Source: Patescibacteria group bacterium (GTDB lineage: Bacteria > Patescibacteriota > Minisyncoccia > Portnoybacterales > UBA2143). From it: a stretch of DNA of 64,000 nucleotides. Below, piece by piece: positions 5,817-60,253 of the stretch. The stretch lies in assembly GCA_018830295.1 (NCBI GenBank), contig JAHJSM010000001.1, forward strand, positions 65,980-129,979, in the 5' to 3' direction. The notes under the pieces are model-generated. The model was given only the letters and a program-made list of their open reading frames with translations. It was not told the origin of the DNA and did not search any database. A program made the position numbers and the translations under genes. Every line of letters starts with the position of its first letter. The first letter of the stretch is position 1.

Positions 5817-5867
5817 TATACACTATTTCCGCTTTTCAGACAAATAACTACAGCAACTCCTAACTCC

Positions 5868-5902: not shown

Positions 5903-5914
5903 TATTATAATTTC

Positions 5915-39448: not shown

Positions 39449-40357
39449 TTATTTTGTCGCTTTCTTTATTCCTTGAACGCGATAATAATCTAAAATTTTG
39501 ACATAAATTATTTTGGGCAAGGGAATAAGCAACTTATCTAAAAAACAAATAATTTCGGTCGTTAAAAACATTATTGGCTTACTAAAAATAAGTTTTTTAA
39601 AAAATAATCTTATCGGATTCTTAGTTTCTTTATATTTAGACTTATATTCAAGTGCTGGGATTTTTTGAGCAAGAATAATAGATGATTGTCCTTTGTTAAA
39701 CATTGTTTTTTGATAACTCTTAAAATTAATTGGATGATTGTGATAAGCGACTGCCTTTTTATTAAAAACTGTTCTCATCCCATTTTTAAATAATCTATAT
39801 CCCAATTCTGAATCTTCGTAGGCGGCATACGGAAATTCTTCGTCAAATAATTCTGTTTTTTCTAAAAATTTTTTACGAATAGAAACATTAGAGGTATAAA
39901 AATATCCCCAATCAACATTGTTTTCATCGTTAATAGACGGATAAGCGAAATGATAATCGGTAATATATTTTCTAAAAGGAGTTATTCTGATTTGAGGCGC
40001 CCATTTAGTATAACCCAAAACTGATATATTCTCATTTGCTGTTCTGTGAATATTAATATGTTCCTCAAGTAAATTTTCTGAAGGAATTATGTCATCTCCT
40101 GTGAAAAAAATAATTTCGTTTTTTGCTTGTTTGATGCCAAGATTTCGAGCGCTGGCAGGACCTTTATTCTGTTGGAAAATATATTTTATTTTGAGAGACA
40201 AATTTATCCCTTTAACAACCTCCTCTGTCCCATCAGTGCTTCCATCGTCCACAATAATAATTTCAAAATTTTTGTATGATTGTCGAGAAAATGCTTTAAG
40301 CGTTTCAATTAAAGTATCTCTTCTATTGTAAGTTGGGATAACTACACTTAATTTCAT
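39449..40357 (-). CDS. GT2 glycosyltransferase
   Basis: 302 aa. LSVVIPTYNRRDTLIETLKAFSRQSYKNFEIIIVDDGSTDGT and a DDI motif are present. Confidence 0.75.
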   Translation of the reverse strand: MKLSVVIPTYNRRDTLIETLKAFSRQSYKNFEIIIVDDGSTDGTEEVVKGINLSLKIKYIFQQNKGPASARNLGIKQAKNEIIFFTGDDIIPSENLLEEHINIHRTANENISVLGYTKWAPQIRITPFRKYITDYHFAYPSINDENNVDWGYFYTSNVSIRKKFLEKTELFDEEFPYAAYEDSELGYRLFKNGMRTVFNKKAVAYHNHPINFKSYQKTMFNKGQSSIILAQKIPALEYKSKYKETKNPIRLFFKKLIFSKPIMFLTTEIICFLDKLLIPLPKIIYVKILDYYRVQGIKKATK

Positions 40358-41442
40358 TAATATTCACCTTTAATAATTTTGAAAATCATTTTTGGGCTTA
40401 AATAAATATTTGGAATTTGGTAGCATGAATGCGCGCAATAACATTCTTTTTTTCTAATTGATTTTCTCATTCTTTTTGCTTCTTCTGATTGCCAGATTTC
40501 AGTCAAATCATAATCAAATTCTCTTAAGTTGCCAATTTTTTTTCTGTTTTCGCAAGGGTAAACATTACCCAAGGCGTCAACCACTGGATAAAAAGCGGAT
40601 ATGCGGCAAGAGATAATTTGCTTTTTTTTTCTCAAAATATCCAAAGATAATCTGTGATAAATCGGAATAATCACTCTTTTATAAAAATTATTTTCGTTTT
40701 TATTTTCTTTTTTTAATATCTCTACAACTTGGGCAAATTTGTTCAAATCCGCTTCCTTTACTTTACTTTGATTATAATCCCCTCTCAATAACTCTAATCC
40801 GCCATAAATATCCGCCTCTGGTAGATTGTTTTCAACATATTTTACTAAATCAACAACTTTATCAATGTTTAAGTTAAAAACCGTCGTACATATTCTTAAT
40901 CTTAATTTTGAATATTTTTTCTTTAATTTAGACAGCCCCCTATAGGTTTCCAAGAATTTTTCAAAATTACCTTCAATTCCCCTAATTTTATCATGGTCCT
41001 TGCCAATGCCATCCAATGACAATCCAATCTTAACTCCGCCCTTAAATCTATTTAATATTTCCTCTGTTTTGGTTAAAATTTTATCAACCGATAAACAGTT
41101 GGTCGGAATAGCCACCATCTTAATATTGTTGTTTCTATTAAAACAACCAACGATTTCCACTAAATCATCCCGTAAAAATGGCTCGCCGCCCCCGATAGTT
41201 ACGGTATGCAAATCACCCAATTTTTTAGTAAATTTTTCTATCTCTTTTAGGGTCAACTCTTTATCTATGTCTTTGTTTAAAATTTTCCAATTAAAACAAG
41301 TAACACAACGAGAATTGCAAACATTAGTTATTTGAAAAATCAAACTATAAAAAGGTTTGGATCTCCCAGGCAAAGACCTCAAAAAAAACTTTATATAATC
41401 TGGATTATTTTTATAAAAACTTAACAATGGTCTAAAATTCAT
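40357..41442 (-). CDS. radical SAM protein with C-terminal SPASM/twitch-like Cys cluster, copy A
   Basis: 361 aa. CNSRCVTCFNW (C-x3-C-x2-C) and IGGGEPFLRDD are present. The C-terminal Cys residues are CRISAF..PCE...CYCAHSC. It shares a start/stop nucleotide with GT2 39449..40357 and overlaps GT2 41432..42421. Confidence 0.65.
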   Translation of the reverse strand: MNFRPLLSFYKNNPDYIKFFLRSLPGRSKPFYSLIFQITNVCNSRCVTCFNWKILNKDIDKELTLKEIEKFTKKLGDLHTVTIGGGEPFLRDDLVEIVGCFNRNNNIKMVAIPTNCLSVDKILTKTEEILNRFKGGVKIGLSLDGIGKDHDKIRGIEGNFEKFLETYRGLSKLKKKYSKLRLRICTTVFNLNIDKVVDLVKYVENNLPEADIYGGLELLRGDYNQSKVKEADLNKFAQVVEILKKENKNENNFYKRVIIPIYHRLSLDILRKKKQIISCRISAFYPVVDALGNVYPCENRKKIGNLREFDYDLTEIWQSEEAKRMRKSIRKKECYCAHSCYQIPNIYLSPKMIFKIIKGEY

Positions 41443-42421
41443 AAATGCGCTTTTTAATTATTTTTAACATATACCACGGCGTCCAAACAAGAACCGTCCA
41501 CAAAAATTGAGGAGTAAAAATGAAAACGAATCTAATTAAAAAAGTAATCTTATACTTAAAATTAGCATGTCTTATATAAAAGATAAAGCGGTTTCTGTAA
41601 TGCCTATATTTTTGTCCATTAACATTAGACAAATATCGTCTAATTATTTTTAGGTAAATTTTAATTCTTGCGATTATTTTTTTATTCTCAATCTGCGACA
41701 TTAAATCATCTAAAAAAACATGACTAGCCGTAGCTGACTTAATGTGCCAAACGCCACCAAATGGAATATAGAGAACTTGATAGCCGGCTTTTTTTGCTTT
41801 TTGACACCAATCAGCATCTTCATAAAAAGCAAAGAACACATCATCTAATAATCCAATCTTATCCACTACTTCTTTTTTAATCATTAATGAACAACCCGTA
41901 ATAAAATCGACTTCTTTTTTTGAATCGCCTATCAATTCTTTGTCTGTTAATCCTCTGCCCAAATGGAAACTATCGCTCTTTGCCCAATCTATTTTCCCGC
42001 CAGCAAACCAAATTTCATTTGGCTTGTCCATGAAGTATATTTTTGGACCAACGATGCCCATCTCCGGCGAACTTTCTAACTCCCCAACCAAAACCTCAAT
42101 TAGTTTTGAATGAATTTTTGTGTCATCATTCAATAAAAAAAGAATTTCTCCTTCTGCCTGTTTTATTCCTTCATTATTACCCCCTGTAAAACCTAAGTTT
42201 TTTTCTTTTTTAATCAACCTGACTTCTGGAAATTTTTTACTAATCAATTCTGGCGTTCCATCTTTTGAACCATTATCAACCACGATAATTTCATAATTTG
42301 GATAAGTTGATTTAAGAACCGATTCAAGACAATCAGAGACATGCCGGATGCCATTCCATGTGACAATAATAATGGATACTTTAGGATAATTTTTCATTTT
42401 TAAAAATATTTCTAACAACAA
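41432..42421 (-). CDS. GT2 glycosyltransferase
   Basis: 329 aa. VSIIIVTWNGIRHVSDCLESVLKSTYPNYEIIVVDNGSKDGT and a DDT motif are present. Confidence 0.75.
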   Translation of the reverse strand: MLLEIFLKMKNYPKVSIIIVTWNGIRHVSDCLESVLKSTYPNYEIIVVDNGSKDGTPELISKKFPEVRLIKKEKNLGFTGGNNEGIKQAEGEILFLLNDDTKIHSKLIEVLVGELESSPEMGIVGPKIYFMDKPNEIWFAGGKIDWAKSDSFHLGRGLTDKELIGDSKKEVDFITGCSLMIKKEVVDKIGLLDDVFFAFYEDADWCQKAKKAGYQVLYIPFGGVWHIKSATASHVFLDDLMSQIENKKIIARIKIYLKIIRRYLSNVNGQKYRHYRNRFIFYIRHANFKYKITFLIRFVFIFTPQFLWTVLVWTPWYMLKIIKKRIYEF

Positions 42422-43700
42422 AAAGATGTAACGCCAAAAAGAAAGCAGAACAAAAAATTAAGGATAAAATCACGGCCATTAGAGCGCTATAAATTTTCAC
42501 TAAAATAAATATCAACAAAGCCATTACCGCCACATGGAAAATATTGAGTATAATGGAAATTTTCATTTTATTGACCGTTCTATAAAAAGCGCTCAAACCG
42601 ACGCTAAAACCGGAAAAAATAATTAAAACAGCCAAATAATACACTATCTGGATACTGTGAATATACTCCATCCCATAAAAAAATTTAATTAGATAAGGAG
42701 CTAAAATAATAAAAGGAATAATCAACAGAGCAGAGATAAAACCCGAATAAAAAACTGTTTTGTAAAAATGGTTTTTTAGAGTTTGTAAATTATATGTCTT
42801 AGATTTCGGCAATTGAACAGTCAAAAGACGAGCAACTGGCTCCAAAAGCATTGAGGGAATAGCAATATATCCAAAAGCAATTTTAAAATAACCTACTTCC
42901 TGAACAGAAGCAAAAATACCTAAAAATATAACTGGCAAAATAGAAATAAGATTACCTATATTCTTATCCAAGGCAATTGAAAAACCAAAATTAAAATATT
43001 TCTTTAATCTTATTTGCTTGAAATTAGAAAATATTTGTCTAAAGGTTGGTAAAAGCTCGTCTTTCTTAATTAACGAAAAATAATAGATGATAGATAAAAT
43101 AAAAAGAACAAGAGCAGATATAAAATTACCCCAAACCACTCCAAGCAAACCCCAGCCCAATAAAACAAAAACGATGGGCAACAAACTATAAATGAATTTA
43201 TTAAAGGTCTCTAAAATTGTTAACTCTTTAATTCTGCGAAGAACCTGTAAAACAATTATAAGAAAATTATAAATAACACTCAAAAAAGTAGCTAATAAAA
43301 CCATTCTTGCCCAATGGCCTATCTGACTATTATGATAAAGCAAATTAGTTAAAAAGGGGGCTAAAAAAACGCTTAGTATCCCTACCGCGCCAACAGCCAA
43401 AAGAGTAATTTTTAAAAAATAAGTCAGAACATTCTTAATTTCCTGTTTATCCTTTTTAGCATAGACCCCAGCCAAAAGCGTCAAACCAGCATACATTCCG
43501 CCCCAATTCATAAAAATTCCAACTAAACCAACAAAAGCAAAAATCAAGCCGTAAATTCCATATAATTCAGGACGCAACAAACGAGCCAAAACAACAGAAG
43601 TAGATACGCTCAGAAGAATAGAAAAAAACTTACCCACCTGCAAAATACCGACATCTTGGACAAATGATATTTTAGTAAAATCTTTAAATTTAGAAATCAT
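42381..43700 (-). CDS. Wzx-like oligosaccharide flippase (MOP superfamily polysaccharide biosynthesis protein)
   Basis: 439 aa with about 12 TM segments. The N-terminal VVLARLLRPELYGIYGLIFAF pattern is typical of Wzx. Confidence 0.55.
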   Translation of the reverse strand: MISKFKDFTKISFVQDVGILQVGKFFSILLSVSTSVVLARLLRPELYGIYGLIFAFVGLVGIFMNWGGMYAGLTLLAGVYAKKDKQEIKNVLTYFLKITLLAVGAVGILSVFLAPFLTNLLYHNSQIGHWARMVLLATFLSVIYNFLIIVLQVLRRIKELTILETFNKFIYSLLPIVFVLLGWGLLGVVWGNFISALVLFILSIIYYFSLIKKDELLPTFRQIFSNFKQIRLKKYFNFGFSIALDKNIGNLISILPVIFLGIFASVQEVGYFKIAFGYIAIPSMLLEPVARLLTVQLPKSKTYNLQTLKNHFYKTVFYSGFISALLIIPFIILAPYLIKFFYGMEYIHSIQIVYYLAVLIIFSGFSVGLSAFYRTVNKMKISIILNIFHVAVMALLIFILVKIYSALMAVILSLIFCSAFFLALHLFVVRNIFKNEKLS

Positions 43701-43713
43701 TTTTCGGTCTTCA

Positions 43714-45735
43714 TTAAATTACTTTCCACAGAAAATATCCTTCTTTTTCAAAAATTAATTCAAATAAATCAGGTCTTCCTTTTATTGTGTTAAAAAAATC
43801 TTGCCAAAAAGAACGATGCGCGTTTTCGGTGATATATTTAATATCATTTTTTTGGAAAAGATCATAAATTTCTTGAGCCGTTAAACTGTTGCAAGGCCGC
43901 AAATCATTAGTAACGCGGTAAAGAGTGTGACTATCCGGACCAACTACCTTGTAATTATGGTACCACGCCAAATAAGTGGGGAAAGCCACATAAATATAAA
44001 AATCCTTATTATCACCCTCTATTTCTTTAATTTGACTGGCGACTTCGGGCAAAATGCCATACGCTTCCATTTTAGGAAAAACAAACTGCTTATGATTTAT
44101 AAAAAACATTAAAGCCAACCCAAAAGTATTGATAATTAACAAAATAACAATATATCCGATAACTAACTTTCGTAAAAGTATCCCTTCAAATCGCTGTAAA
44201 TATCTCCAAGTTAGAATAACAAGAATTAAAAATAAAATAGGCAGCCAAATATTGAGCCAACTAATTTGAATTGTGCTTATAGTAACTAAATAAGAACAAA
44301 ATATCAACAAAAAGAGATATGAACAATATTTCTTTTTAGACAATAAAAAATAAAAAAAGAGCGACAACACTATTGCCATAGCCAACCTGTGTTCGTAGAT
44401 GAATTGGCTGAAAACAAAAAAAATGTTTAATGATTTTTCGAAAAGAGCGATAAAATAACTTTTAGATGAATATACCTCCGTTCTTAATATCCCCAAAAGC
44501 GCCAAAAAAAAGAAAAAAGACGAAAGAACTCTTGATTTAAGATGTTCTATGCCAATTAAGCCATAAATTACTAAAATCCCTAAAACTGGATACAAATAAC
44601 GAGTAATCGCGCCTGGGGCAAGAAAAAAGAAATTTGTTAAAAATAAAAATAGCAAAATTAGAAACATATATTGAATTTTCTTCTTTTTCCAAAATCCATA
44701 AAAAGAAAAAAGAACAAAAGGAAAAACAAACAAAAATTCCTTGGCAATAAATCCAAATCTAATAAATATATTATTAAAAGAAGACGGGGTGTATAGAGCA
44801 TACGACGCGCTCGCGGCTTTAATCAATTCATAATACCGCCCTCTAAATAATTCGTTAAAAAAGGCCGCCATCGGATTATCGTAAATAATATAATTTCTAG
44901 CAAGCCAAAAAATAATTGGCAAGAAAATGAAAACAGAATAAGACCAGAAATACTTTCTAATTGCTTTGTCTTTAATGATTATTAGAAGTAACGGCAATAC
45001 TAAAAACAAACCAGTAAATTTTGAAGCAATAGCTAAAACCGAACTAAAAAGCATTAAAAAGAAATAAAATAAATTATTGCTTTGTTGATACTTTTCTAAA
45101 TAATAGAAAAAAGCAGTAAAGAAAAATATAATTAGCGGTTCTTGAATGAGATCCCATCCGTATTTTATTGTCACAGGATTAACCAAAAAAAGCAGAACAA
45201 CAAAAATAAGATATTTTTTAGTTATCCCACTTTCTCGCGCCCATTGATATAACAAAAGAGCCGTTGCCGCCATAAAAAAAAGTGGCACAGCAAAGACAAA
45301 GATTTCTTTAAACGGCAAAAAAACAAAAACTGTTGCGAACAAAAGCGGCAAGAACGGCATCCGACAATTTATAAAAGAGGGGATATTCAATAAAAAGTCC
45401 GGCATTTTACCTTGTAAAACAATTTCCCTTGCCCAAGGCAACCAATAATTCAAAGCATCTCCGGTAAAATATCCCTTAAACAAGAAAAAACCAATAAATA
45501 GTAACGGAACGAAAATAAAAAAATAAAGATAATATTTAGAAAATACAATCCGGCGGTGAAAAACAAAAACAAAAAAAACAGCTACCAAAAAAACCGCGCT
45601 TATCCAGTATTTATTAAATAAGCCCGACAAACTTAGAAACAACAAAACAGAAAAAAGATAATAAGACAAAACAACAATTAGATCTATAAGATCAATTTTA
45701 ATTGTTTCCGAGAAATATTTTTTTATTTTATCCAT
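43714..45735 (-). CDS. large polytopic membrane protein, putative GT-C glycosyltransferase/polymerase with C-terminal periplasmic domain
   Basis: 673 aa. More than 14 TM segments are followed by a ~170 aa soluble C-terminal domain. Confidence 0.4.
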   Translation of the reverse strand: MDKIKKYFSETIKIDLIDLIVVLSYYLFSVLLFLSLSGLFNKYWISAVFLVAVFFVFVFHRRIVFSKYYLYFFIFVPLLFIGFFLFKGYFTGDALNYWLPWAREIVLQGKMPDFLLNIPSFINCRMPFLPLLFATVFVFLPFKEIFVFAVPLFFMAATALLLYQWARESGITKKYLIFVVLLFLVNPVTIKYGWDLIQEPLIIFFFTAFFYYLEKYQQSNNLFYFFLMLFSSVLAIASKFTGLFLVLPLLLIIIKDKAIRKYFWSYSVFIFLPIIFWLARNYIIYDNPMAAFFNELFRGRYYELIKAASASYALYTPSSFNNIFIRFGFIAKEFLFVFPFVLFSFYGFWKKKKIQYMFLILLFLFLTNFFFLAPGAITRYLYPVLGILVIYGLIGIEHLKSRVLSSFFFFLALLGILRTEVYSSKSYFIALFEKSLNIFFVFSQFIYEHRLAMAIVLSLFFYFLLSKKKYCSYLFLLIFCSYLVTISTIQISWLNIWLPILFLILVILTWRYLQRFEGILLRKLVIGYIVILLIINTFGLALMFFINHKQFVFPKMEAYGILPEVASQIKEIEGDNKDFYIYVAFPTYLAWYHNYKVVGPDSHTLYRVTNDLRPCNSLTAQEIYDLFQKNDIKYITENAHRSFWQDFFNTIKGRPDLFELIFEKEGYFLWKVI

Positions 45736-45804
45736 TGTTTCATCTCTTCTTATTCTAATTGAATTGTGGACAAAAAGCCAGAAAACAGATAGAATGGGAT
45801 AAGA

Positions 45805-46488
45805 GTGAATTTAATAATTATGAACCCTTTCGTAATCATTCCGGCTTGCAATGAAGAGAAAACCATATCTCAAGTTATTGAGGGGGTTAGAGAATATACT
45901 GAAAATATTATTGTTATTGACGACGGATCAAATGATAGCACTTATGAATTGGCTCGCAAATCAACCCAAAACATTCAAAACGCCGTTGTCTTAAGACATA
46001 ATGTCAATTTAGGAAAGGGCGCCGCGCTGAAAACAGGATGCCAAGCGGCAATTCAATTAGGTTCCGAGGTAATTGTTTTAATAGACGCCGATGGTCAGCA
46101 CTCTCCTGCAGACATACCAAATTTGGTCAAGAAACTACAAGAAGAAAAATTAGATATTGTTTTTGGGTCAAGAAAAATCAATAGAGAAATTCCTTTTGTA
46201 AGGTTTTTAGGAAACAGATTTTTAACTAAATCAATAAACTTCCTTTCATGTGTGTCAATAACTGATACTCAATCAGGATTTAAAGCATTCAGGTCTGAAA
46301 TTTACCCAAAGATCGCATGGACATCAAGTGATTATAGAGCTGAAACAGAAATGATTATTAATGTAGGGAAAAATAATTTAAAATACGGGCAAACACCAAT
46401 TCAAACAATTTACAAAAACGCTCATAAGGGCGCGACTATTATTGACGGGATAAAAATATTTTTTAATCTTTTGAAGTGGAAGTTATAA
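45805..46488 (+). CDS. GT2 glycosyltransferase (DPM1-like, soluble)
   Basis: 227 aa. VIIPACNEEKTISQVIEGV...IIVIDDGSNDST and DADGQH are present. Confidence 0.7.
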   Translation: MNLIIMNPFVIIPACNEEKTISQVIEGVREYTENIIVIDDGSNDSTYELARKSTQNIQNAVVLRHNVNLGKGAALKTGCQAAIQLGSEVIVLIDADGQHSPADIPNLVKKLQEEKLDIVFGSRKINREIPFVRFLGNRFLTKSINFLSCVSITDTQSGFKAFRSEIYPKIAWTSSDYRAETEMIINVGKNNLKYGQTPIQTIYKNAHKGATIIDGIKIFFNLLKWKL

Positions 46489-46492
46489 TTTT

Positions 46493-46825
46493 ATGATTTT
46501 AGGAATTCAAATTATAGGAATCATTTTCGGCCTTTTAATGATTTATTTTAGTTTTCTGCATTATAAGCGCCAAGAATTTAGCAAGATTCAATTTTTGTTT
46601 TGGGAGATTGTTTGGGGCGTATTTATCTTAATTGTTGTTTTTCCAAAAATAACCAATGGCATTGTTCATAAAATGGGCGTAAATAGAGCGATGGATCTGC
46701 TAACAATTTTAGGGCTTATGTTTATCACCTTTATGACTTTCTATAATTACACTTCAATTTATAGGCTTAAACAAAAATTAGAAGAAAAAGTCAGAAAAGA
46801 AACCTTGAGAGAATTAGACAAATGA
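46493..46825 (+). CDS. small 3-TM membrane protein, DUF2304-like partner of the preceding GT2
   Basis: 110 aa. Its position and size fit the GT2+DUF2304 pairs I recall. Confidence 0.45.
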   Translation: MILGIQIIGIIFGLLMIYFSFLHYKRQEFSKIQFLFWEIVWGVFILIVVFPKITNGIVHKMGVNRAMDLLTILGLMFITFMTFYNYTSIYRLKQKLEEKVRKETLRELDK

Positions 46826-48255
46826 AAATTTTATTACTTAATCCGCCCTTTAAAAAAAGATTTTCTAGGACATCTCGCAGTCCGTCCGTAACCAGAGGTG
46901 GAACAATTTATTATCCATTTTGGCTGGCCTACACGGCCGGCGTTCTTGATAAAGAAGGTTTTGATCTGACTATTATTGACGCTCCTGCCGAAAATTATAA
47001 CTTAAGCCATGTTTTAGAAAAAACAATAAAATTTCAGCCGCAATTAATAGTAATTGACACAAGCACGCCAAGTATTTTTAACGATATTAAAGTAGCGGAG
47101 CGCTTGAAAAAACTCCTGCCCAACGCCTTTATTGTTCTAGTCGGCACGCACCCGTCTGCCGTTCCAGAAGAAACCTTGGGTTTTAGCAACAAAATAGACG
47201 CTGTCGCTAAAGGAGAATACGATTATACGATTAGAGATTTGGCTTATTGTTTAAAAAACAAAGATGGATTAGAAAAAGTTGACGGTTTAATCTTCAGAAA
47301 AAACAGCCAAATAATCATCAATCAGCCACGAATCTTAATCGAAAATCTTGACGAAATCCCCTTTGTTAGTCAAGTTTATAAAAAATACTTTAATATTAAA
47401 AAATATTTTTTCGCCGCTTCTGATTACCCTTTTGTTATGATGATTACCGGCAGAGGATGCCCTTTTCGCTGTTTTTTTTGTGTTTATCCGCAAACATTTC
47501 ATAGTAGAAAATATCGCTTTAGAAGCCCTGAAAATGTAGTTAAAGAATTTGAATATATTGTTGAAAATCTTCCAGAAGTAAAAGAAATAGGCATTGAAGA
47601 CGATACCTTTACAGCTGATCGCAAGAGAACAGTTAAAATTTGCCAACTACTTATTGAAAGACAAATTAAAATGAAATGGTATTGCAATGTCCGAGCCGAC
47701 TTGGATTTAGCAACAATGAAATGGATGAAAAAAGCCGGATGCCATTTGCTGACGATCGGTTTTGAAAGCGGGAATCAAAATGTTCTTAATAATATTCATA
47801 AAGGAATAACCATAGAACAAATCAAGGAATTTACTAAAAACGCAAGAAAAACAGACATTTTAGTTCATGGTTGTTTTATGGCTGGCAATCCAGGAGAGAC
47901 AAAAGAAACATTAGAAGAGACATTAACCCTCGCTAAGGAAATAAATTGCGACAGTATGCAATTTTATCCCTTGATAGTTTACCCGGGAACCGAAGCGTAT
48001 CAATGGGCAAAAGAAAATAAATATTTAATCAGTTCAGATTATAGACAATGGGCAACTAAAGAAGGGATGTACAATTGCATTCTTAATTTCCCCCACTTAA
48101 GCTCTCAAGAAATTCTTAATTACTGCAACCGAGCGACAAGAGAATATTATTTAAGGCCTGCCTATATTTTAATGAAAATCAAACAGATGATTCTCCATCC
48201 TCAAGAAATTGGAAGGACGATAAAGTCAGCTAAAACATTTTTTAAATACCTATGA
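46822..48255 (+). CDS. B12-binding-domain radical SAM protein, copy 2
   Basis: 477 aa. TGRGCPFRCFFC is present. The N-terminal B12-binding-like domain carries VGTHPS. Confidence 0.7.
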   Translation: MKILLLNPPFKKRFSRTSRSPSVTRGGTIYYPFWLAYTAGVLDKEGFDLTIIDAPAENYNLSHVLEKTIKFQPQLIVIDTSTPSIFNDIKVAERLKKLLPNAFIVLVGTHPSAVPEETLGFSNKIDAVAKGEYDYTIRDLAYCLKNKDGLEKVDGLIFRKNSQIIINQPRILIENLDEIPFVSQVYKKYFNIKKYFFAASDYPFVMMITGRGCPFRCFFCVYPQTFHSRKYRFRSPENVVKEFEYIVENLPEVKEIGIEDDTFTADRKRTVKICQLLIERQIKMKWYCNVRADLDLATMKWMKKAGCHLLTIGFESGNQNVLNNIHKGITIEQIKEFTKNARKTDILVHGCFMAGNPGETKETLEETLTLAKEINCDSMQFYPLIVYPGTEAYQWAKENKYLISSDYRQWATKEGMYNCILNFPHLSSQEILNYCNRATREYYLRPAYILMKIKQMILHPQEIGRTIKSAKTFFKYL

Positions 48256-50512: not shown

Positions 50513-50533
50513 TTAGATAATTTACTTAAAAAA

Positions 50534-51955
50534 ATGAAATTATTTTTAGTGATGCCACCAATTGCTATATCTAAAGGTTATTACTCAACTAATAGTGATT
50601 TTGAGTTTCCTGTGTCTCTCTGCTATATAGCTGCTTTAATGGAAAAAAATGGTAAAAAAGTTAAAGTTTTTGATGGTCGCTTATCCCAAAATTTAGAAGA
50701 AGAATTCTCTAATTTACTTGATAAGAATAATTTTGATGTTATAGGCTTTAGTACGGTTACTCCTTCTATCACAAGCACTATGAGATTGGCAGCATTAGCT
50801 AAACAAAAAAACCCCTGTATTATTACGATTATTGGAGGGGCTCATCCTACGGTGGTTGGACCTAAAGTATTAGAACAATTCCAAGATATTGATATTGCAG
50901 TCTTTGGAGAGGGCGAACAAACCGTAATAGAACTTTTGCAAAATTTAGAAGAAAAAAAGCCATTGGAAAAAGTTTGTGGAATAGCTTTTCGAAAAGATTC
51001 AAAAATAGTGCAAACCGGCAAACGAGAGCTAATTAAAGATTTAGATGCTCTTCCTTATCCAGCTTACCATATGGTAGATCTTTTAAAATATGGAACTAAT
51101 CCCGGATTGTTTTTTGAAAAACCAATAATTGCAATAATTACTTCTCGAGGATGTCCTTTTGACTGTAATTTTTGCGCTGATACACTTATATGGCAAGGCA
51201 AGGTTCGCTTCCGTAGTGCTCAAAAAGTAGTTGACGAGATGCAGCTTTTGGTAAAAGAATATGGAGTTAAAGAGATAAAGTTTTTTGATGATACATTTAC
51301 GATAAATAGAAAGCGGGCAGTAGAAATTTGTAATGAAATTTTAAAGAGAAAGCTAAATGTAATATGGAGATGTGCTTCTAGGGTAGATGCAGTTGATCTT
51401 GAATTGCTGAAATTGATGAAAAAAAGTGGATGTTGTAGTATCTCTTTTGGTCTTGAGTCTGGAAGTGACGAAATTTTAAAAAGGATGAATAAAAGAACAA
51501 CCACTCAACAAGGAAGAGTTGCTGTAAAATTAGCTAAACAGGCAGGCTTATATGTAAACGGTCTTTTTATGTTAAATTATCCTGGAGATACCATAGAAAC
51601 CACTGAACAGACAATACGTTTTTCCCGAGAATTAGATCTTGATTATGCTGGTTTTAATCTAGTTATCCCACATTTTGGCACCAAAATGTATAAAGAAATA
51701 AAAGACAACTATAGAGTAGAGCCAAAAGTATGGGACAACCCTGATGCACCTTTGGGTAACCAAATTTATTTTTATCAAGATTCTTTGCCATCAGATTACT
51801 TAATAAAGGCTTATCGGAGAGCAAGTTTAGGGTTTTATATGCGACCAAAGATAGTTTTTAAAAGTCTATTACGAATTAAAAATTTTGCAATGCTAAAAAG
51901 TTATATCATTGGCGCATTACAGTTACTTAAGCTTCGGGCTAAAAAAAGCAATTAA
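50534..51955 (+). CDS. B12-binding-domain radical SAM protein, copy 3
   Basis: 473 aa. TSRGCPFDCNFC and IGGAHPT are present. Confidence 0.7.
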   Translation: MKLFLVMPPIAISKGYYSTNSDFEFPVSLCYIAALMEKNGKKVKVFDGRLSQNLEEEFSNLLDKNNFDVIGFSTVTPSITSTMRLAALAKQKNPCIITIIGGAHPTVVGPKVLEQFQDIDIAVFGEGEQTVIELLQNLEEKKPLEKVCGIAFRKDSKIVQTGKRELIKDLDALPYPAYHMVDLLKYGTNPGLFFEKPIIAIITSRGCPFDCNFCADTLIWQGKVRFRSAQKVVDEMQLLVKEYGVKEIKFFDDTFTINRKRAVEICNEILKRKLNVIWRCASRVDAVDLELLKLMKKSGCCSISFGLESGSDEILKRMNKRTTTQQGRVAVKLAKQAGLYVNGLFMLNYPGDTIETTEQTIRFSRELDLDYAGFNLVIPHFGTKMYKEIKDNYRVEPKVWDNPDAPLGNQIYFYQDSLPSDYLIKAYRRASLGFYMRPKIVFKSLLRIKNFAMLKSYIIGALQLLKLRAKKSN

Positions 51956-51976
51956 TACAACAATACACAATGAACA

Positions 51977-52564
51977 ATGAAAAAATTAACCGAAAATTAC
52001 TTCAGTGAAATTAAGCAAACGCTGGATAAAATACCTCTTAAAGATATAGAAAAATTTGCTTCAACGCTTTATAATGTCTATCTAAAGGGAGGACATATTT
52101 TTATTATGGGCAACGGAGGAAGCGCTTCAACCGCCTCGCATTTCGCTTGCGATTTAAGCAAGGGCGTTTTATCTCCGAAAAATCATAAAAAGATTAAAAG
52201 ATTAAAAGTAACATCTTTAACGGACAACATGGCAACCATTACCGCGTGGAGCAATGATCTTAGTTATGAAAAAATTTTTTCGGAACAATTAAACAACTTG
52301 TCGCGCGAAGGCGACGCGGTCATAGGAATTAGCGCTAGTGGCAATTCCCCTAATATTATAGACGCCATAAAAACAGCGAAAAAGAAAAAAACGATTACTC
52401 TTGGTTTGGCTGGATTTAATGGAGGAAAATTGGCTAAAATGGCTGATATTTGTATCACAGCAAAAGTAGATAAATATGATATCGCGGAAGATATTCATTT
52501 AATGTTGGCGCACATTATTACCCGACATTTTTTTAATTTAATAAATAAAAAAAATTATGAGTAA
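51977..52564 (+). CDS. gmhA: sedoheptulose-7-phosphate isomerase (SIS domain)
   Basis: 195 aa. IFIMGNGGSASTASHFACDL and GISASGNSPNIIDAI...LGLAGFNGGKLAKMAD match the GmhA signature. Confidence 0.8.
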   Translation: MKKLTENYFSEIKQTLDKIPLKDIEKFASTLYNVYLKGGHIFIMGNGGSASTASHFACDLSKGVLSPKNHKKIKRLKVTSLTDNMATITAWSNDLSYEKIFSEQLNNLSREGDAVIGISASGNSPNIIDAIKTAKKKKTITLGLAGFNGGKLAKMADICITAKVDKYDIAEDIHLMLAHIITRHFFNLINKKNYE

Positions 52565-53243: not shown

Positions 53244-53245
53244 TT

Positions 53246-54682: not shown

Positions 54683-54688
54683 AAATAT

Positions 54689-56104
54689 ATGAAAACGCGC
54701 TTGAATGGAAATAAAAAAAACGCAAAAGTTCTTTTAGTCCAACCTAATTATTCCCAGCAAAAAAAATATACGAGATACAGTATTAGTCCGCCATTGGGAC
54801 TGGCGTATATCGCGGCTACTTTGGAAAAAAATGGAATATGTGTTGAAATACTTGACGCTAATGCGTTGAATTTAAGTGTTCAAGATGTTGTCCGGAAAGT
54901 AAAAGAAATTCAAGCCGATATCGTTGGCGTAAGTATTTTAATGACTGGATATAAATACGGCGTAGAAATCGCGAGGAAAATTCCAAAAAATATTTTATCT
55001 GTTTGCGGAGGAGCTTATCCAAGCAGTGTTCCAGAACAAATCATAAAAGATGGCTTTGATATTGCCGTTAAAGGAAGAGGGGAGCAGCCGATGTTGGACT
55101 TGGCTTTAGGCAAAAAAATAGAGGATATTCCTGGTATATATTATCAAAAAGATAAAAAAATAAACCATAATCCTCCGCATGCCGCAAATAACCTTAAATC
55201 AGACCCCTTGCCCTTGCCTGCCAGACATTTATTAATTAATAACGGAGTAAATTTACCCTACCAGTTGGCTGGAACAATGTACTTCCCTTGGTCGCCTATA
55301 TTTACAAGTATCGGATGTCCTTACCAATGTTATTATTGTAGCAAGCAAGTTTTTGATAGATTTATGCCCAGAAGTCCAGAAGATATTTTCAATGAGATAG
55401 AATTTTTAGTAAAACAATATCAAGTAAAAGAAATTGATGTTTATGATGACTGTTTTAATGCCGACATTAATAGAGCCGAAAAAATTCTTGATTTGATTAT
55501 TAAAAGCGGATTAGATATAAAACTACGATTTCCAAATGGAATTAGAGCGAATAATGTTAATGAATTATTCATTAAGAAAATGAAAAAAGCCGGTTGCGTC
55601 GAGATAGCCTACGGTATTGAATCTGGGAATCAAGAGGTCTTAAACAAAATACCAAAAGCGCTCTTATTGGAAGATGTGAGAAAAGCAGTTCAATACACTA
55701 AAAAAGAAAATATTTTAACTATTGGTTTTTTTATTTTAGGTCTCCGCGGAGATAACGAAAAAAGTATGCAAGAAACAATTGATTTTGCTAAAGAACTTAG
55801 CGTAGATGTCCCATTTTTTAGCATCCTTACTCCATATCCAGGAACGCCGCTTTGGAAAACAATTGAAGAAAATGGAGAATTCCTAATTGAAGACTATGAC
55901 GACCTTCATCAAAGCAGCGGAAAAATGATTTTTTCCCATCCTGATTTTCCATCACCCGAGTTGGTTGAAAAAATGTATAAAAAAGCGTATCGCGAAATAT
56001 ATTTTTCATTTAAATATATATTTCAAACTATATCAAAATTAACACGGAAACAATTCGTCTTAGGTGTTAAAGGATTGCCAAGCATAATTAAAAATTCTTT
56101 TTAA
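54689..56104 (+). CDS. B12-binding-domain radical SAM protein, copy 5
   Basis: 471 aa. TSIGCPYQCYYC and CGGAYPS are present. Confidence 0.7.
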   Translation: MKTRLNGNKKNAKVLLVQPNYSQQKKYTRYSISPPLGLAYIAATLEKNGICVEILDANALNLSVQDVVRKVKEIQADIVGVSILMTGYKYGVEIARKIPKNILSVCGGAYPSSVPEQIIKDGFDIAVKGRGEQPMLDLALGKKIEDIPGIYYQKDKKINHNPPHAANNLKSDPLPLPARHLLINNGVNLPYQLAGTMYFPWSPIFTSIGCPYQCYYCSKQVFDRFMPRSPEDIFNEIEFLVKQYQVKEIDVYDDCFNADINRAEKILDLIIKSGLDIKLRFPNGIRANNVNELFIKKMKKAGCVEIAYGIESGNQEVLNKIPKALLLEDVRKAVQYTKKENILTIGFFILGLRGDNEKSMQETIDFAKELSVDVPFFSILTPYPGTPLWKTIEENGEFLIEDYDDLHQSSGKMIFSHPDFPSPELVEKMYKKAYREIYFSFKYIFQTISKLTRKQFVLGVKGLPSIIKNSF

Positions 56105-56110
56105 AAACCA

Positions 56111-57193
56111 ATGAATAAAATTTATTACTTAATTTATCGAATCGGACTTACTTTTAAATATGGTTTCTTATGGAGAAAACCATTCTTTTTAGCAAAAGCG
56201 ATAAAAAATACTCTTCTTCACCGATTAAATTTAAAAAAAACATTTACTTTGCGCTCTTTATGTTTGGCTATCACTTATGCCTGTAATTACAATTGCCCTT
56301 ACTGTCTTACTAGGGAAATGATGAAAAAAAGAGGCAAGGAAGAATTTTTAAAGTTGACTGACTATAAAAGAATCTCCAAAGAAGCAAAAAAAATGGGGGC
56401 TATCTCTTACGCCTTTCAAGGGGGAGAAATTTGGCTTCGTAAAGATTTTAGAGAAATTATTCAGGCCTTTGAACCAAAAAAAAATTACATAACTATTACT
56501 ACTAATGGAACCTTTCTTAATGAAAAAGAAATCCAAAAATTGGTAGATTTGAAAATTGATAAGATATTATTTAGTTTAGAAAGTGGCTTGCCTTATGAAC
56601 ATGATAAGGCAGTCCATCAACCTGGAGCCTACGATGCTATTATGAAGGTCATCAATCTCACCTTAAAGAATAAAATAAAGGTTGGAATTAATTTAACTTT
56701 ATCAAAAAGAAACCTTTATTCTGAAGGATTTAAAAAGCTAATAGAATTTTGCGATCAACAAAAAATACTCTTAAACATTATTTTTGGCTGCGCTTTGGGT
56801 AATTGGAAGAAATATCGAAGCGCAATGTTATCTGAAAAAGATATAGAATATTATAATAAAAATATAGTCCCCCTTTCTCCGTGTCTTAATAGGCATTTAA
56901 ATTTTAATTATAACGGTCATTATGGTTGTCCAGCCGCTAAGGAGATTTTTTATATTAACCCTTGGGGAGATGTCTTAGCTTGTCCTTTTAACCACACATT
57001 TTTTGGCAGCCTCAAAAAAGACTCTTTAAGAAAAATTCATAATCGTGTTTCAAAAATTAAATGGTTTAGTCATTTTCACCCCCGATGTTTAGTCGCCGAA
57101 GAAAAAGCCTTTATGGATGATTATTATCCATCTTTGGGCCAAAGCCAGTACGGCTATATCGACTATACTCACTGGATAAAAAAACAAAAATGA
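56111..57193 (+). CDS. radical SAM protein with C-terminal SPASM/twitch-like Cys cluster, copy B
   Basis: 360 aa. CNYNCPYCL and FQGGEIWLRKD are present. The C-terminal Cys residues are SPCLN...GCPA...ACPF...RCL. Its 3' end overlaps the start of GT2 57190..58158. Confidence 0.65.
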   Translation: MNKIYYLIYRIGLTFKYGFLWRKPFFLAKAIKNTLLHRLNLKKTFTLRSLCLAITYACNYNCPYCLTREMMKKRGKEEFLKLTDYKRISKEAKKMGAISYAFQGGEIWLRKDFREIIQAFEPKKNYITITTNGTFLNEKEIQKLVDLKIDKILFSLESGLPYEHDKAVHQPGAYDAIMKVINLTLKNKIKVGINLTLSKRNLYSEGFKKLIEFCDQQKILLNIIFGCALGNWKKYRSAMLSEKDIEYYNKNIVPLSPCLNRHLNFNYNGHYGCPAAKEIFYINPWGDVLACPFNHTFFGSLKKDSLRKIHNRVSKIKWFSHFHPRCLVAEEKAFMDDYYPSLGQSQYGYIDYTHWIKKQK

Positions 57194-58158
57194 ATAAAAA
57201 AACAACTATTTTAGTGGCTGTTTTTAATAAAAAAGAAACAATTGTAAATTGCGTGGAATCTTTACTGAATCTCGATTCTCCTCCCGCAAGACTTTTATTT
57301 CTTGATGGCGGTTCAACTGATGGAACTTATCAAATTTTAGAAAAGGAATATAAAAATAAGATAGATTTAATCCAACTTCCTATAAGCCATTCTGAAAGAA
57401 TGAATTGGGCGTTAGATAATATTAATACAGAATATACCGCCTTAACGGACGCTGATTGCGTAGTTGAACCGGATTGGCTTACCGAGTTATTGAAAGGATT
57501 TTCTGAAGAAAAAAATATTGTCGCTACTGCCGGTTATTGCGGTACTCCAAAAAAGACTTCATTTCTCCAAAAATTAATCGGGATGGATATGGATAATAGA
57601 TTTGATAACCTTCCTCGTTATTTATGCCGCGCGCCAACTATGAATTTATGTTTTAGAACTGATATAGCGAGAAATGTTAAATTTGATGAAAAACAAAAAG
57701 TAGCGATAGAAACAGATTTTGGATTTAGATTAAGCAAACACGGTAAAATACTTTATGTTCCAAAATCCAAAGTTTGGCATTATCACCGAAGCGACTTAAA
57801 AAGTTATTTTAATCAACAAAAAAATCAGGCCAAATGGGGCCCGAGATTAATTCTTAAACATAAACAGAGAGCTATTTCGGATCCAATTACCGGATTAGGT
57901 ATGACTATCCAAATTCCGCTTTTAATGGCGGGGATTGTTTTTTTGTTTTTATCTTTGTTTAATCAAATATTTATTTATTTTGCTATAGTTTCTTTCTCGA
58001 TTCTTCTTTCAATTTATATAAAAAATATTGTCAAAATAAACCCCTCTCCTCTGTATTACTTAATTTTACCATTTTTCTTTCTTTATCGAACATTTGCTTG
58101 GACAATTGGCGTAATTGAGGGGTCTTTTCTTTTACTTTTAGACAAATCCTTAAGATAA
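57190..58158 (+). CDS. GT2 glycosyltransferase with C-terminal TM helices
   Basis: 322 aa. TILVAVFNKKETIVNCVESL...FLDGGSTDGT, TDADC and two C-terminal TM helices are present. Confidence 0.7.
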   Translation: MNKKTTILVAVFNKKETIVNCVESLLNLDSPPARLLFLDGGSTDGTYQILEKEYKNKIDLIQLPISHSERMNWALDNINTEYTALTDADCVVEPDWLTELLKGFSEEKNIVATAGYCGTPKKTSFLQKLIGMDMDNRFDNLPRYLCRAPTMNLCFRTDIARNVKFDEKQKVAIETDFGFRLSKHGKILYVPKSKVWHYHRSDLKSYFNQQKNQAKWGPRLILKHKQRAISDPITGLGMTIQIPLLMAGIVFLFLSLFNQIFIYFAIVSFSILLSIYIKNIVKINPSPLYYLILPFFFLYRTFAWTIGVIEGSFLLLLDKSLR

Positions 58159-59235
58159 CGGCTTTCTTCTAAAAAAACCTATTAAAATATGAAAAAGGTG
58201 GCGGGGATTAAATAAAGTATTTGAGGTCATAGCGCATTCAAAGGTGCAAAAACATTTGCTTTTTCTTATTTTTTTCCTAACCGTCTCTGATTTTTTAGAA
58301 AACCATAGTTTTTTTAAATTAAAATCAAAATCTTTAAGATTGCCCATTTTGTTACTCAACATTTCACACGGATAAACATCTCCGTTTTCTTTTAAAATCG
58401 CTAATAAATTACCAGCATAACAGGGAGTAATATATTTTTTTTCCGAATATATTCTACTTAAAATCCGCGAACCATAATATTGCCTTGATGAAAGAATTCT
58501 CTCTATCCATGAGGGATTTTTTTTGTAAGTCTTTTCTAAAAAATCATTCCTTAATTTAAACATAATGTTGTCATAATGTTTTATATCCAACTCTTTTAAG
58601 GACATATCCCTAACCTCTGAACGAATTATGTTTACCCCAACATTCTCAACGCCTAAATCTTTCTCCAAAAAATCAACTATTTCCCCTACTTCTTCTTGAT
58701 TATCTTTGGTAATAGTAACTATATTGCCAAGGCGAAAGTTACTAAATTCTTTTTCTAACTCTTTAAGTTTTTTTATTGTTTTTACCGCTTTTTCAAAACA
58801 ACCGTCAACCTGCCTGATTTGATTATGTTTTTCTCCTAAATTATCTATGGAAATGCCAACAGCAACCCTGATATCTTTGCGACAAACTTCCAAAATATTT
58901 TTAGTTGTCCTAAATATACGGTCTGTTAAAATTCCATTCGTCGGTATTTGGAGATTAGCTACTTTAGTAAACCGACTAAAAATAGAAGCCACTTCAACTA
59001 AGTTATCCCTTAAAAATGGTTCTCCCCCAGTTAAAGTAACTGTGAGAAGGTCGGGCGCGCTTTTCGCGACTTTTTCTATTTCAAGCAAACTTAACTCATC
59101 TTTAATTGTATTAATTTTTTGCCAATAAAAACAATGCCTGCATTTGGCGTTGCATTTGGAAGTAACAAAAAATATTAAATTAAGCGGCATCCCTCGTTTT
59201 ATAAAAACACGAGAAATTTGTTTTAATAGACACAT
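58150..59235 (-). CDS. radical SAM protein with C-terminal SPASM/twitch-like Cys cluster, copy C (close paralog of copy A)
   Basis: 361 aa. CNAKCRHCFYW, LTGGEPFLRDN and the C-terminal PCYAG...PCE...CFCTFEC are present. It is collinear with 40357..41442 throughout. Confidence 0.65.
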   Translation of the reverse strand: MCLLKQISRVFIKRGMPLNLIFFVTSKCNAKCRHCFYWQKINTIKDELSLLEIEKVAKSAPDLLTVTLTGGEPFLRDNLVEVASIFSRFTKVANLQIPTNGILTDRIFRTTKNILEVCRKDIRVAVGISIDNLGEKHNQIRQVDGCFEKAVKTIKKLKELEKEFSNFRLGNIVTITKDNQEEVGEIVDFLEKDLGVENVGVNIIRSEVRDMSLKELDIKHYDNIMFKLRNDFLEKTYKKNPSWIERILSSRQYYGSRILSRIYSEKKYITPCYAGNLLAILKENGDVYPCEMLSNKMGNLKDFDFNLKKLWFSKKSETVRKKIRKSKCFCTFECAMTSNTLFNPRHLFHILIGFFRRKPLS

Positions 59236-59239
59236 ATAA

Positions 59240-60253
59240 TTAATTTTTTATTTTGAAATATATTTGAAAATAAAGCCCGCAGACAGCGGCAAAAAACATT
59301 TCAATTGCGGAAAACAACACAGACAAAACAGCAAAAAAAACGCCCTTTCTTCTCTTGAAATATTTAAAAAACTCTGTTTGAACCCAAAAAAACATTAAAA
59401 CCGAAAATAAAAAACCGAAAATAAAAAACCAGTAGATAAATGATAAAATAAGAAAGATAGATGCCAAAATTATTGGATACAGCGATTTGCCTGAAGATGA
59501 TTTAGACATATTTAAATATGTCTTCCGAAGTTCCTTCTCTTGGATAATTCTAACAATACTCCCTATTCTTAAACAATTCGTCCTTAAAAGAGATTTTAGA
59601 TTGTGTTTTTTATGATGCTCCCCTTTTATTCTGTTATCTTGTAAAATCTTTTTATTTTCATTTAAAGACAATCTTAAAGTAAATTCTATGTCTTCCGCCG
59701 TCGCCCCAAGATAATTCTCATTAAATCCGTTCGCTTTAAAAAACATTTCTCTGGGTATAGCTAATATGGCCGAATCGGCGGCAAAATTAAATTTTGAAGC
59801 AATTTTTTTCCCTAAACACATGTACAAATGCTTGTAGGTGCTGAAAAAATCGCTGAAAACTATTCTTTCGTCATAAACACCGGAAACTCCGCATACATCA
59901 AATGATTTAAAATCATCTTTGATATGTTTAATAATATCCCTGGAAGACAAAACAATATCGCTATCAACAAAAAGCAATATCTCGCCTTTTGCATTTTTAG
60001 CGCCTAAATTGCGAGTAGCGGCAACTCCCTTGTTCACTGGGTTAGAAACAACTTTAACTCCATGTTTTTTGGCGATTAGAACGGAAGTATCAACTGAAGC
60101 GTCATTGGCTACAATTAGTTCGCATTTTTCAAAATCTTTTATTTTAGTTATTGCCTCCAAGCATTTATCTAAAGTCTTCTCGCCGTTAAAGACAGGAACA
60201 ATAATAGATAAAAAGATTGATGGCCTTTCTTTGTCTGTCATAAAATTACTCAA
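59240..60253 (-). CDS. GT2 glycosyltransferase with C-terminal TM helices
   Basis: 337 aa. LSIIVPVFNGEKTLDKCLEAI...ELIVANDASVDTS, VDSD and C-terminal TM helices are present. Confidence 0.7.
   Translation of the reverse strand: MSNFMTDKERPSIFLSIIVPVFNGEKTLDKCLEAITKIKDFEKCELIVANDASVDTSVLIAKKHGVKVVSNPVNKGVAATRNLGAKNAKGEILLFVDSDIVLSSRDIIKHIKDDFKSFDVCGVSGVYDERIVFSDFFSTYKHLYMCLGKKIASKFNFAADSAILAIPREMFFKANGFNENYLGATAEDIEFTLRLSLNENKKILQDNRIKGEHHKKHNLKSLLRTNCLRIGSIVRIIQEKELRKTYLNMSKSSSGKSLYPIILASIFLILSFIYWFFIFGFLFSVLMFFWVQTEFFKYFKRRKGVFFAVLSVLFSAIEMFFAAVCGLYFQIYFKIKN

Follow-up and report, generated by a model that had tools for sequence, protein, structure and literature searches.

A widespread glycosyltransferase-linked family of twitch-type radical SAM proteins represented in a surface-glycan island of a Patescibacteria bacterium

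A stretch of 64,000 nucleotides from the Patescibacteria contig JAHJSM010000001.1 (positions 65,980 to 129,979; assembly GCA_018830295.1), called the window here, carries three genes for radical S-adenosylmethionine (SAM) proteins, rSAM_A, rSAM_B and rSAM_C, each in contact with a gene for a family 2 glycosyltransferase (GT2). Two of these proteins, rSAM_A and rSAM_C, belong to a widespread uncharacterised family, referred to as the A/C family, whose functional linkage to glycosyltransferases (GTs) is well supported. On balance, we consider that its members probably act as putative single-cluster twitch-type radical SAM enzymes, each with a dedicated GT partner, that tailor a lipid-linked sugar added by a GT2. 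The analysis shows the functional linkage, cysteines patterned for one auxiliary cluster, partners associated with the membrane and the lack of a peptide substrate; what the GT2 and radical SAM pair acts on, which of its two steps comes first and what chemistry it performs are inferred. Radical SAM tailoring of sugars next to a GT is known already. What is new relative to the searched literature, in which neither the A/C family nor fusions of GT2 with radical SAM proteins are described, is the family itself, its breadth, its co-evolution with GT2 and the natural fusions. It is possible, and we suggest it only tentatively, that the family and the fusions form an undescribed class of membrane-associated glycan builders with two activities, in which glycosyl transfer is coupled directly to radical C-H chemistry on the lipid-linked sugar just added.

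The three window proteins represent two families and not three copies of one, because rSAM_A and rSAM_C align end to end at 34% identity (E 1e-66), whereas rSAM_B resembles either of them at 22-26% identity over the core only. The original prediction had described rSAM_A and rSAM_C as close paralogs; the pairwise alignment makes them members of one family and nothing closer. The A/C family gave 823 matches in a word-indexed search; of 1.84 billion cluster representatives, 3,134 belong to it at E<=1e-30. It ranges over Patescibacteria, DPANN archaea, Acidobacteriota, Chloroflexota, Planctomycetota, Omnitrophota, Desulfobacterota and Firmicutes. A profile search against PDB sequences returned only generic SPASM/twitch relatives for the family, and no NCBIfam equivalog came near its cutoff for rSAM_A, rSAM_B or rSAM_C. 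HpnJ, MftC, MftF, MoaA, NirJ and AhbD were ruled out by the NCBIfam cutoffs as identities of the window proteins.

All three proteins belong to the radical SAM superfamily (PF04055, 62-74 bits, cutoff 29.5) and match the SPASM domain of Pfam (PF13186; 36.3, 23.7 and 22.0 bits for rSAM_A, rSAM_B and rSAM_C; gathering score 21.5). SPASM is a seven-cysteine motif, CX9-15GX4C-gap-CX2CX5CX3C-gap-C, with ligands for two auxiliary clusters, and twitch is a truncated SPASM with one auxiliary cluster (PMC6231123). A twitch domain was recognised by C-x9-15-G-x4-C around a beta-hairpin and a cysteine after the next helix. The A/C family was aligned as a set of 25 sequences and, by hmmalign, as a set of 180 members. 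The core motif CX3CX2C (C42/46/49 in rSAM_A) is kept in 179 of the 180 members, and four C-terminal cysteines, C279, C297, C334 and C336, are present in every one (180/180). Both alignments give the spacing C279-x12-G292-x4-C297-x36-C334-x-C336. A further cysteine, C340, is found in 72% of members, and 162/180 have no cysteine beyond position 340. Strict SPASM membership fails because only four C-terminal cysteines in the A/C family, or three in the rSAM_B family, are invariant; in both families they fit the twitch pattern. The SPASM-type label of the original prediction is therefore correct only as a Pfam clan match, and the A/C pattern is that predicted for a four-cysteine twitch protein with a single auxiliary Fe-S cluster.

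The same combination of a CX3CX2C core and a C-x(9-15)-G-x4-C hairpin is found in the twitch enzymes BtrN, SkfB and MoaA and in the sugar-acting SpeY, HygY and NeoN, and the one auxiliary cluster of these enzymes is predicted here as well. The C...C-x36-CxC stretch of the A/C family mirrors the CX33CXC of SkfB and the four-cysteine ligation of BtrN (PMC6231123). In alignment, the A/C cysteines coincide with the twitch cysteines of SkfB, CxC included. Directly after the hairpin cysteine, a glutamate (E298) is present in 152/180 members and aligns with the Asp that follows C276 of anSME, which we take to be the proposed catalytic base of that enzyme. An AlphaFold2 model of rSAM_A (predicted local distance difference test, pLDDT, 92) has an alternating beta/alpha core. 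Its comparison with SkfB, MoaA, CteB, anSME, BlsE and DesII gives TM-scores of 0.5-0.6 at 15-21% identity, and the solved twitch members are no closer to the A/C family. Unlike SkfB, A/C proteins have no recognition element (RRE) of the kind associated with peptides made by ribosomes and modified after translation (RiPPs).

In the window, the three radical SAM and four GT2 open reading frames (ORFs) lie where the original prediction had placed them, and its overlaps and domain assignments were borne out by the ORF check, by Pfam and by reading the junctions. The four GT2 proteins belong to glycosyltransferase family 2 (PF00535, 73-111 bits, cutoff 23.3). rSAM_A (40357..41442, minus strand, 361 amino acids) is flanked by two of them on its own strand. 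GT2_2 (41432..42421), its upstream partner, overlaps it by 11 nt, and GT2_1 (39449..40357), its downstream partner, shares one nucleotide with it at a TAATG junction. GT2_1 is EpsD-like (NCBIfam EpsD, 194 bits, short of its 370-bit cutoff). rSAM_C (58150..59235, minus strand, 361 amino acids) lies downstream of GT2_4 (59240..60253, minus strand), a membrane-embedded GT2, with a gap of 4 nt. On the plus strand, rSAM_B (56111..57193) overlaps the downstream GT2_3 (57190..58158), a membrane GT2 that also matches PF13632, by 4 nt (ATGA). Taken by itself, the window proves little about pairing, because 5.7% of random orders of the 27 island genes, which include 6 GT2, put all three radical SAM genes beside a GT2 (permutation, P = 0.057).

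The pairing of A/C genes with GTs recurs in other genomes. The 80 genome loci used here are those that scored highest by tblastn against one pattern, not a random sample, and the neighbour counts are approximate, since ORFs in the fetched loci were called by a simple longest-ORF heuristic. A GT is immediately adjacent to the A/C gene in 26 of 68 non-redundant loci, across phyla and domains, and 14 of the 20 closest homologues are GT-adjacent. Immediate neighbours in the 68 loci include GT2 in 15, GT4 in 12 and a radical SAM protein with a B12-binding domain (B12-rSAM) in 9. Pfam bears this out: the upstream neighbour is a GT2 in 11/61, a GT4 in 6/61 and a B12-rSAM in 7/61 loci; the downstream neighbour is a GT4 in 6/68, a short-chain dehydrogenase/reductase (SDR) epimerase/dehydratase in 5/68 and a GT2 in 4/68. 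A cassette of B12-rSAM, GT4, GT2 and radical SAM genes recurs in the Patescibacteria loci L001 and L009, the order in L001 being GT4-B12rSAM-GT2-rSAM, and a Woesearchaeota locus (L006) reads GT2-rSAM-SDR-YfhO. Pairs also stand apart from glycan genes. Locus L003 has an isolated radical SAM and GT2 pair outside any glycan island of its 3.3-Mb genome, and in L004 a B12rSAM-rSAM-GT4 operon stands alone, surrounded by archaeal ribosomal and housekeeping genes.

The identity of the GT2 partners appears to follow that of the radical SAM proteins. GT2s resembling GT2_4, 30-40% identical to one another, are found directly upstream and on the same strand of rSAM_C-like genes in the window and in Woesearchaeota, Omnitrophota, Planctomycetia, Chloroflexia and Binatia; pairs of this kind span six phyla, and the radical SAM proteins in them are closer to rSAM_C than to rSAM_A. 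GT2_2-like proteins are encoded directly upstream of rSAM_A-like genes in L001 and L009, and GT2_1-like proteins (35-40% identity) directly downstream of A/C genes in L050 and L064. Partner GT2 clades track radical SAM subclades, and the partners are non-random.

Gene fusion provides the decisive evidence. Among the best 150 A/C representatives, 9 are fusions of 618-719 amino acids in which an N-terminal GT2 is followed by two hydrophobic segments and a C-terminal radical SAM domain. One more of the 150 (P0262, 608 amino acids) has a radical SAM domain with a C-terminal WecG/TagA (GT26) domain. In the fusion P0171, which is encoded by a single gene beside housekeeping genes, residues 1-326 are 45% identical to GT2_4 and residues 339-695 are 63% identical to rSAM_C. 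By this comparison P0171 is the GT2_4 and rSAM_C pair of the window in a single polypeptide. Each fusion was observed on a single contig; assembly artefacts are unlikely because there are nine independent representatives at <=50% identity. At L174 (6001-11355), a GT2-rSAM fusion of 719 amino acids is followed by a fusion of a B12-binding radical SAM protein with a GT2 (733 amino acids) and by a third radical SAM protein (331 amino acids). Two small ORFs upstream of the L174 fusion (5642-5830 and 5877-6008) have translations without precursor-like features. At L173 (464-4550), a GT2-rSAM fusion adjoins a radical SAM/SPASM gene split by an intein (Intein_splicing, LAGLIDADG) and a fusion of an NTP-transferase with a GT4.

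The possibility that adjacency is incidental was also considered. It would be a consequence of an island dense in GT and radical SAM genes and of short overlaps that are normal in compact Patescibacteria genomes. The within-island permutation agrees with it, as do the loss of the direct rSAM_B-GT2_3 coupling in a 68%-identical relative and the fact that most GT2_4-like GT2s have no radical SAM neighbour. It is nevertheless already contradicted for A and C because GT2-rSAM fusion proteins exist, one of them orthologous to the window pair, and the fusions are recurrent. Matched partner clades and pairs outside glycan islands also oppose it, and we regard it as very improbable. The original prediction of a functional radical SAM and GT module is strongly supported for rSAM_A and rSAM_C by recurrent adjacency, matched clades and fusions, all from outside the window; the direct coupling of rSAM_B to a GT2 is not conserved.

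Several features place the radical SAM protein close to the membrane. GT2_4 has two C-terminal hydrophobic segments (255-296 and 303-331) that form a transmembrane hairpin, and D97-x-D99 is invariant in the alignment of its family. The best PDB match of its AlphaFold2 model (pLDDT 94) is the membrane mannosyltransferase PcManGT, with the GT-A fold of GT2 enzymes, and the highest TM-scores are with cellulose and hyaluronan synthases. Some A/C members have a hydrophobic N-terminal extension or anchor of their own (e.g., P0188). In three genomes, PF03706 (LPG_synthase_TM), a polytopic MprF flippase-like domain, is fused N-terminally to an A/C radical SAM domain (L049 3774-6014, L072 3429-5534 and L080 3906-6068). 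Long radical SAM ORFs in high-GC genomes were first assumed to be artefacts of ORF calling; Pfam identified these three as real fusions. The GT hairpin, the PF03706 fusions, the N-terminal anchors and a context of flippase and GT-C-like genes together suggest that the radical SAM protein is positioned at the membrane beside the GT.

The operon of rSAM_A, on the minus strand, provides part of this context. Its first gene encodes a polytopic membrane protein (43714..45735), a possible GT-C with a suggestive PMT_2 match of 16.4 bits (cutoff 26.1). A Wzx/MATE-like flippase (42381..43700; PF13440, PF01943 and a weaker MatE match) lies next, upstream of GT2_2, and a second polytopic protein and possible GT-C (37729..39447; PMT_2, a suggestive 23.4 bits against the same cutoff) lies directly downstream of GT2_1. 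The operon of rSAM_C, also on the minus strand, is headed by a B12-rSAM (61394..62776; PF02310, PF04055), followed by a GT4 (60288..61397; PF00534, PF13439), GT2_4 and rSAM_C.

In the explanation that we favour, a membrane-embedded GT2, consisting of a GT-A domain and a C-terminal transmembrane hairpin, would transfer a sugar, on the cytoplasmic side of the membrane, to a lipid-linked acceptor. Candidate acceptors are a polyprenyl-phosphate-linked glycan and a membrane lipid. The radical SAM protein would be kept at the GT2 site, by covalent fusion in some organisms, where it would abstract a hydrogen atom from the new sugar and tailor it. The likeliest tailoring would be a BtrN/anSME-style oxidation or epimerisation at an unactivated carbon, with the auxiliary cluster as an electron conduit. 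This chemistry is favoured because the cluster is predicted to be fully ligated by cysteine and because the conserved glutamate aligns with the anSME aspartate. Ring contraction or C-C bond formation may take place instead. The tailored product would then be flipped by a Wzx/MATE-like or PF03706-type protein and used outside the membrane by GT-C-like enzymes.

A number of observations count against this explanation. No GT is immediately adjacent in 42/68 loci, perhaps in part because ORFs of high-GC genomes were called crudely. Among 80 metagenome loci that encode GT2_4-like GT2s (25-37% identity), only about 8 have a radical SAM gene within 3 kb, so the radical SAM protein is an accessory to a subset of these GT2s. 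An obligate two-way module was dropped as a candidate, the GT2_4-like clade being much broader than the pair. The PMT_2 matches of both polytopic proteins, at 16-23 bits, fall under the Pfam cutoff. The proposed chemistry is a guess because the A/C family has no characterised member and its nearest solved structures are distant, at the identities and TM-scores given above. Finally, A/C proteins pair with GT2, GT4 and GT26 folds, and a shared sugar donor fits this as well as a shared product does.

The last point is the starting point of the main rival explanation, in which the radical SAM protein acts first. Like DesII or BlsE, it would convert a common nucleotide sugar to an unusual one, which the dedicated GT next to it would then transfer, and its substrate would be soluble. 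Pairing with three GT folds is most easily explained by a shared donor sugar. The structural neighbours BlsE, DesII, MoaA and viperin act on nucleotide-linked substrates, and an NTP-transferase-GT4 fusion adjoins the GT2-rSAM fusion of L173. On the other hand, fusion of the radical SAM domain directly after the transmembrane hairpin of a GT2 or after a PF03706 domain points to a membrane-bound substrate, and so does the hydrophobic N-terminal anchor of members such as P0188, neither of which strictly excludes a soluble one. We consider this order of events rather unlikely.

Tailoring after glycosyl transfer has precedents among lipids. HpnI (a GT2) and HpnJ (a radical SAM protein) of hopanoid cyclitol-ether synthesis, and likewise a GT and the calditol synthase Cds of Sulfolobus, act in succession, the GT placing a sugar on a lipid and the radical SAM enzyme rearranging it (PMC13459092). 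The same logic, GT first and radical SAM second, is proposed here for the A/C pairs. HpnJ is a radical SAM protein with a B12-binding domain. In contrast, rSAM_A, rSAM_B and rSAM_C lack PF02310, and the HpnJ model (TIGR03471, cutoff 577.6) is not among their matches. The HpnJ-like protein of the window is a separate gene product (46822-48255, plus strand), a B12-rSAM whose full-length match to the HpnJ model scores 435 bits, below the cutoff. It follows a short GT2 (227 amino acids) and a DUF2304 membrane protein, and this segment (45805-48255, plus strand) is a second kind of GT and radical SAM module, nearer to the HpnI/HpnJ analogy than the pairs of rSAM_A, rSAM_B and rSAM_C. Patescibacteria are not known as hopanoid makers.

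The lipid precedents raise the possibility that the A/C module remodels the head group of a membrane glycolipid and not a surface polysaccharide, as proposed for HpnI/HpnJ and calditol synthase. The self-contained units of two or three genes at L003 and L004, without other glycan genes, are consistent with it, as are the fusions to PF03706, an MprF-type lipid-flippase domain, the HpnJ-like B12-rSAM within the same island and the published head-group chemistry (PMC13459092). The window pairs are placed, however, within a classic lipid-carrier island with a phosphoglycosyl transferase, a Wzx-like flippase, heptose genes and many GTs, and rSAM_A, rSAM_B and rSAM_C are not members of the HpnJ or MftC families. 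A head-group role is thus improbable in our judgement.

Three-component extracytoplasmic glycosylation offers another comparison for the favoured explanation of a tailored lipid-linked sugar. In these systems, auxiliary enzymes diversify a lipid-linked donor, as in the ArnC/ArnD/ArnT, DprE1/E2 and GT136 systems (PMC11127046). They combine a polyprenyl-phosphate sugar synthase with a flippase and a GT-C, and the layout of the rSAM_A operon is similar, with a membrane GT2 as candidate synthase, the MATE/Wzx-like flippase and, as possible GT-C enzymes, the PMT_2-like proteins with their sub-threshold scores. The auxiliary enzyme would differ, being a radical SAM protein here and not an SDR or flavoenzyme epimerase or a deformylase. 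Moreover, GT2_4 is nearer to PcManGT and to cellulose-synthase-like GT2s than it is demonstrably a synthase of the GtrB/DPMS type. A/C genes lie outside aminoglycoside and cofactor clusters, and the family is defined by its GT partnership and occasional fusion.

SPASM and twitch radical SAM proteins are typical of RiPP systems, so that the three window proteins could be maturases of a glycosylated peptide with a glycocin- or sactipeptide-like product. The Pfam SPASM matches and the position of the sactisynthase SkfB as best structural and sequence neighbour agree with such a role, and GT2_2 has a very weak match to the SunS family (31.5 bits, cutoff 350). A free-standing small ORF of at least 20 amino acids was not found in the window between the radical SAM and GT2 genes or at any junction, which upholds the statement of the original prediction that no precursor peptide ORF lies nearby. 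Only 27-57 residues precede CX3CX2C, too few to accommodate an RRE domain. The partner genes encode membrane GT2s and lie in glycan loci, and no peptide-maturase NCBIfam model came near its cutoff. With neither a peptide ORF nor an RRE, a RiPP role was rejected, the proteins falling outside the RiPP-maturing radical SAM/SPASM enzymes; we deem it highly unlikely. GT adjacency, matched GT2 and radical SAM subclades and fusions instead assign rSAM_A and rSAM_C to glycan assembly.

Mycofactocin biosynthesis shares with the window the occurrence of a radical SAM protein of the SPASM/twitch clan (MftC) and a GT2 (MftF) in one cluster, and weak NCBIfam matches to both were obtained. The scores are far below the cutoffs: 44.9 bits for rSAM_A and 56.5 bits for rSAM_B against MftC (TIGR03962, cutoff 265), and 64-85 bits for the window GT2s against MftF (TIGR03965, cutoff 280). 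The window encodes neither an MftA peptide nor MftB, and its genes are in a glycan island and not in a redox-cofactor cluster. The resemblance to hopanoid and mycofactocin pathways that the original prediction had drawn holds as an analogy; no member of the HpnI/HpnJ or MftC/MftF families is present among the paired proteins.

rSAM_B is a separate case. The search returned only 18 homologues, apparently all of them from Patescibacteria, and this narrow family has the invariant cysteines C58/62/65, C273, C291 and C326 with the spacing C273-x12-G-x4-C291-x34-C326. Its three C-terminal cysteines mirror those of MoaA, and its best NCBIfam match is MoaA (TIGR02666, 85.3 bits over the core only, cutoff 284), well short of membership. 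The pattern may therefore reflect a MoaA-like twitch domain with a putative auxiliary cluster that has an open iron site. In the window, a B12-rSAM (54689..56104, plus strand; PF02310, PF04055) lies directly upstream of rSAM_B. The rSAM_B-GT2_3 ATGA coupling is not conserved, because in relatives the GT2 is one or two genes away. In L089, where the rSAM_B orthologue is 68% identical, the order is GT2-short A/C-like rSAM-B-B12rSAM-EamA-GT2_3 orthologue (59% identity), which puts the GT2_3 orthologue two genes away. In L090 and L091 (37% identity) the order is B-like-HpnJ-like B12rSAM-GT2. A B12-rSAM is the immediate neighbour of the rSAM_B homologue in each of these three loci, and the conserved unit is a trio, with B, B12-rSAM and GT2 in one operon.

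Three further features of these loci may be mentioned. The B12-rSAMs that directly follow the rSAM_B-like genes in L090 and L091 are orthologues, at 59% identity, of the 46822-48255 protein. The short A/C-like radical SAM protein of L089 (7096-8004, 302 amino acids, C...GxxxC...CGC), encoded between a GT2 and the rSAM_B orthologue, has no counterpart at the matching position of the window. A heptose-type pathway gene set, also present in the window, lies beside the rSAM_B homologues of L089 and L090.

Radical SAM enzymes are known to tailor sugars in a few antibiotic and lipid head-group pathways; such tailoring is not known to be a regular, modular component of glycan assembly at the cell surface. 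GTs are the only consistent partners of the A/C family, with its approximately 3,100 representatives, and gene fusion confirms the linkage. Single-polypeptide GT2-rSAM enzymes, together with homologues in cultured strains such as Pelotomaculum terephthalicicum JT (L028) and strain NaphS2 (L065), offer a tractable handle on new sugar chemistry. If the class of glycan builders with two activities suggested above is real, anaerobes, including candidate phyla radiation (CPR) bacteria and DPANN archaea, would gain sugars or cyclitols beyond those of conventional nucleotide-sugar pathways. B12-rSAM-GT2 fusions such as that of L174 would extend the GT-coupled radical principle to cobalamin-dependent chemistry. 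The linkage may also help to explain the presence of nine radical SAM genes in one Parcubacteria surface-glycan island, at an episymbiont surface that is poorly understood.

That island, which occupies 30.9-64 kb of the window, is of the lipid-carrier glycan type and includes an initiating phosphoglycosyl transferase (30882-32213). It is carried on a Parcubacteria contig of 744,622 bp (~0.74 Mb), possibly most of the genome, and its GC content is 0.29-0.34, compared with 0.35-0.48 upstream. Its GTs comprise six GT2 and a single GT4; it also encodes a Wzx/MATE-like flippase, a membrane protein with PF03706, two methyltransferases and a heptose nucleotide-sugar pathway. The nine radical SAM genes lie within ~30 kb (33636-64000), six with a B12-binding domain and three of the twitch type. 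The island would in effect be a set of GT and radical SAM tailoring modules. The PF03706 gene stands alone in the window (35920-36861), directly after a B12-rSAM. The heptose-type pathway (48252-52564, plus strand) comprises an NTP-transferase-HAD phosphatase fusion, a GHMP kinase and an SIS isomerase, and a B12-rSAM (50534-51955) is interleaved with its genes. An AAA_14/DUF4143 ATPase gene (32290-33591, plus strand) lies between the phosphoglycosyl transferase and the first GT2 of the island. Upstream of the island, the window encodes a TrwB/TraG-like coupling-protein ATPase, type IV secretion-like (5915-7321, minus strand), with the Sec genes secD (15984-17432) and secA (24020-26572) in its surroundings.

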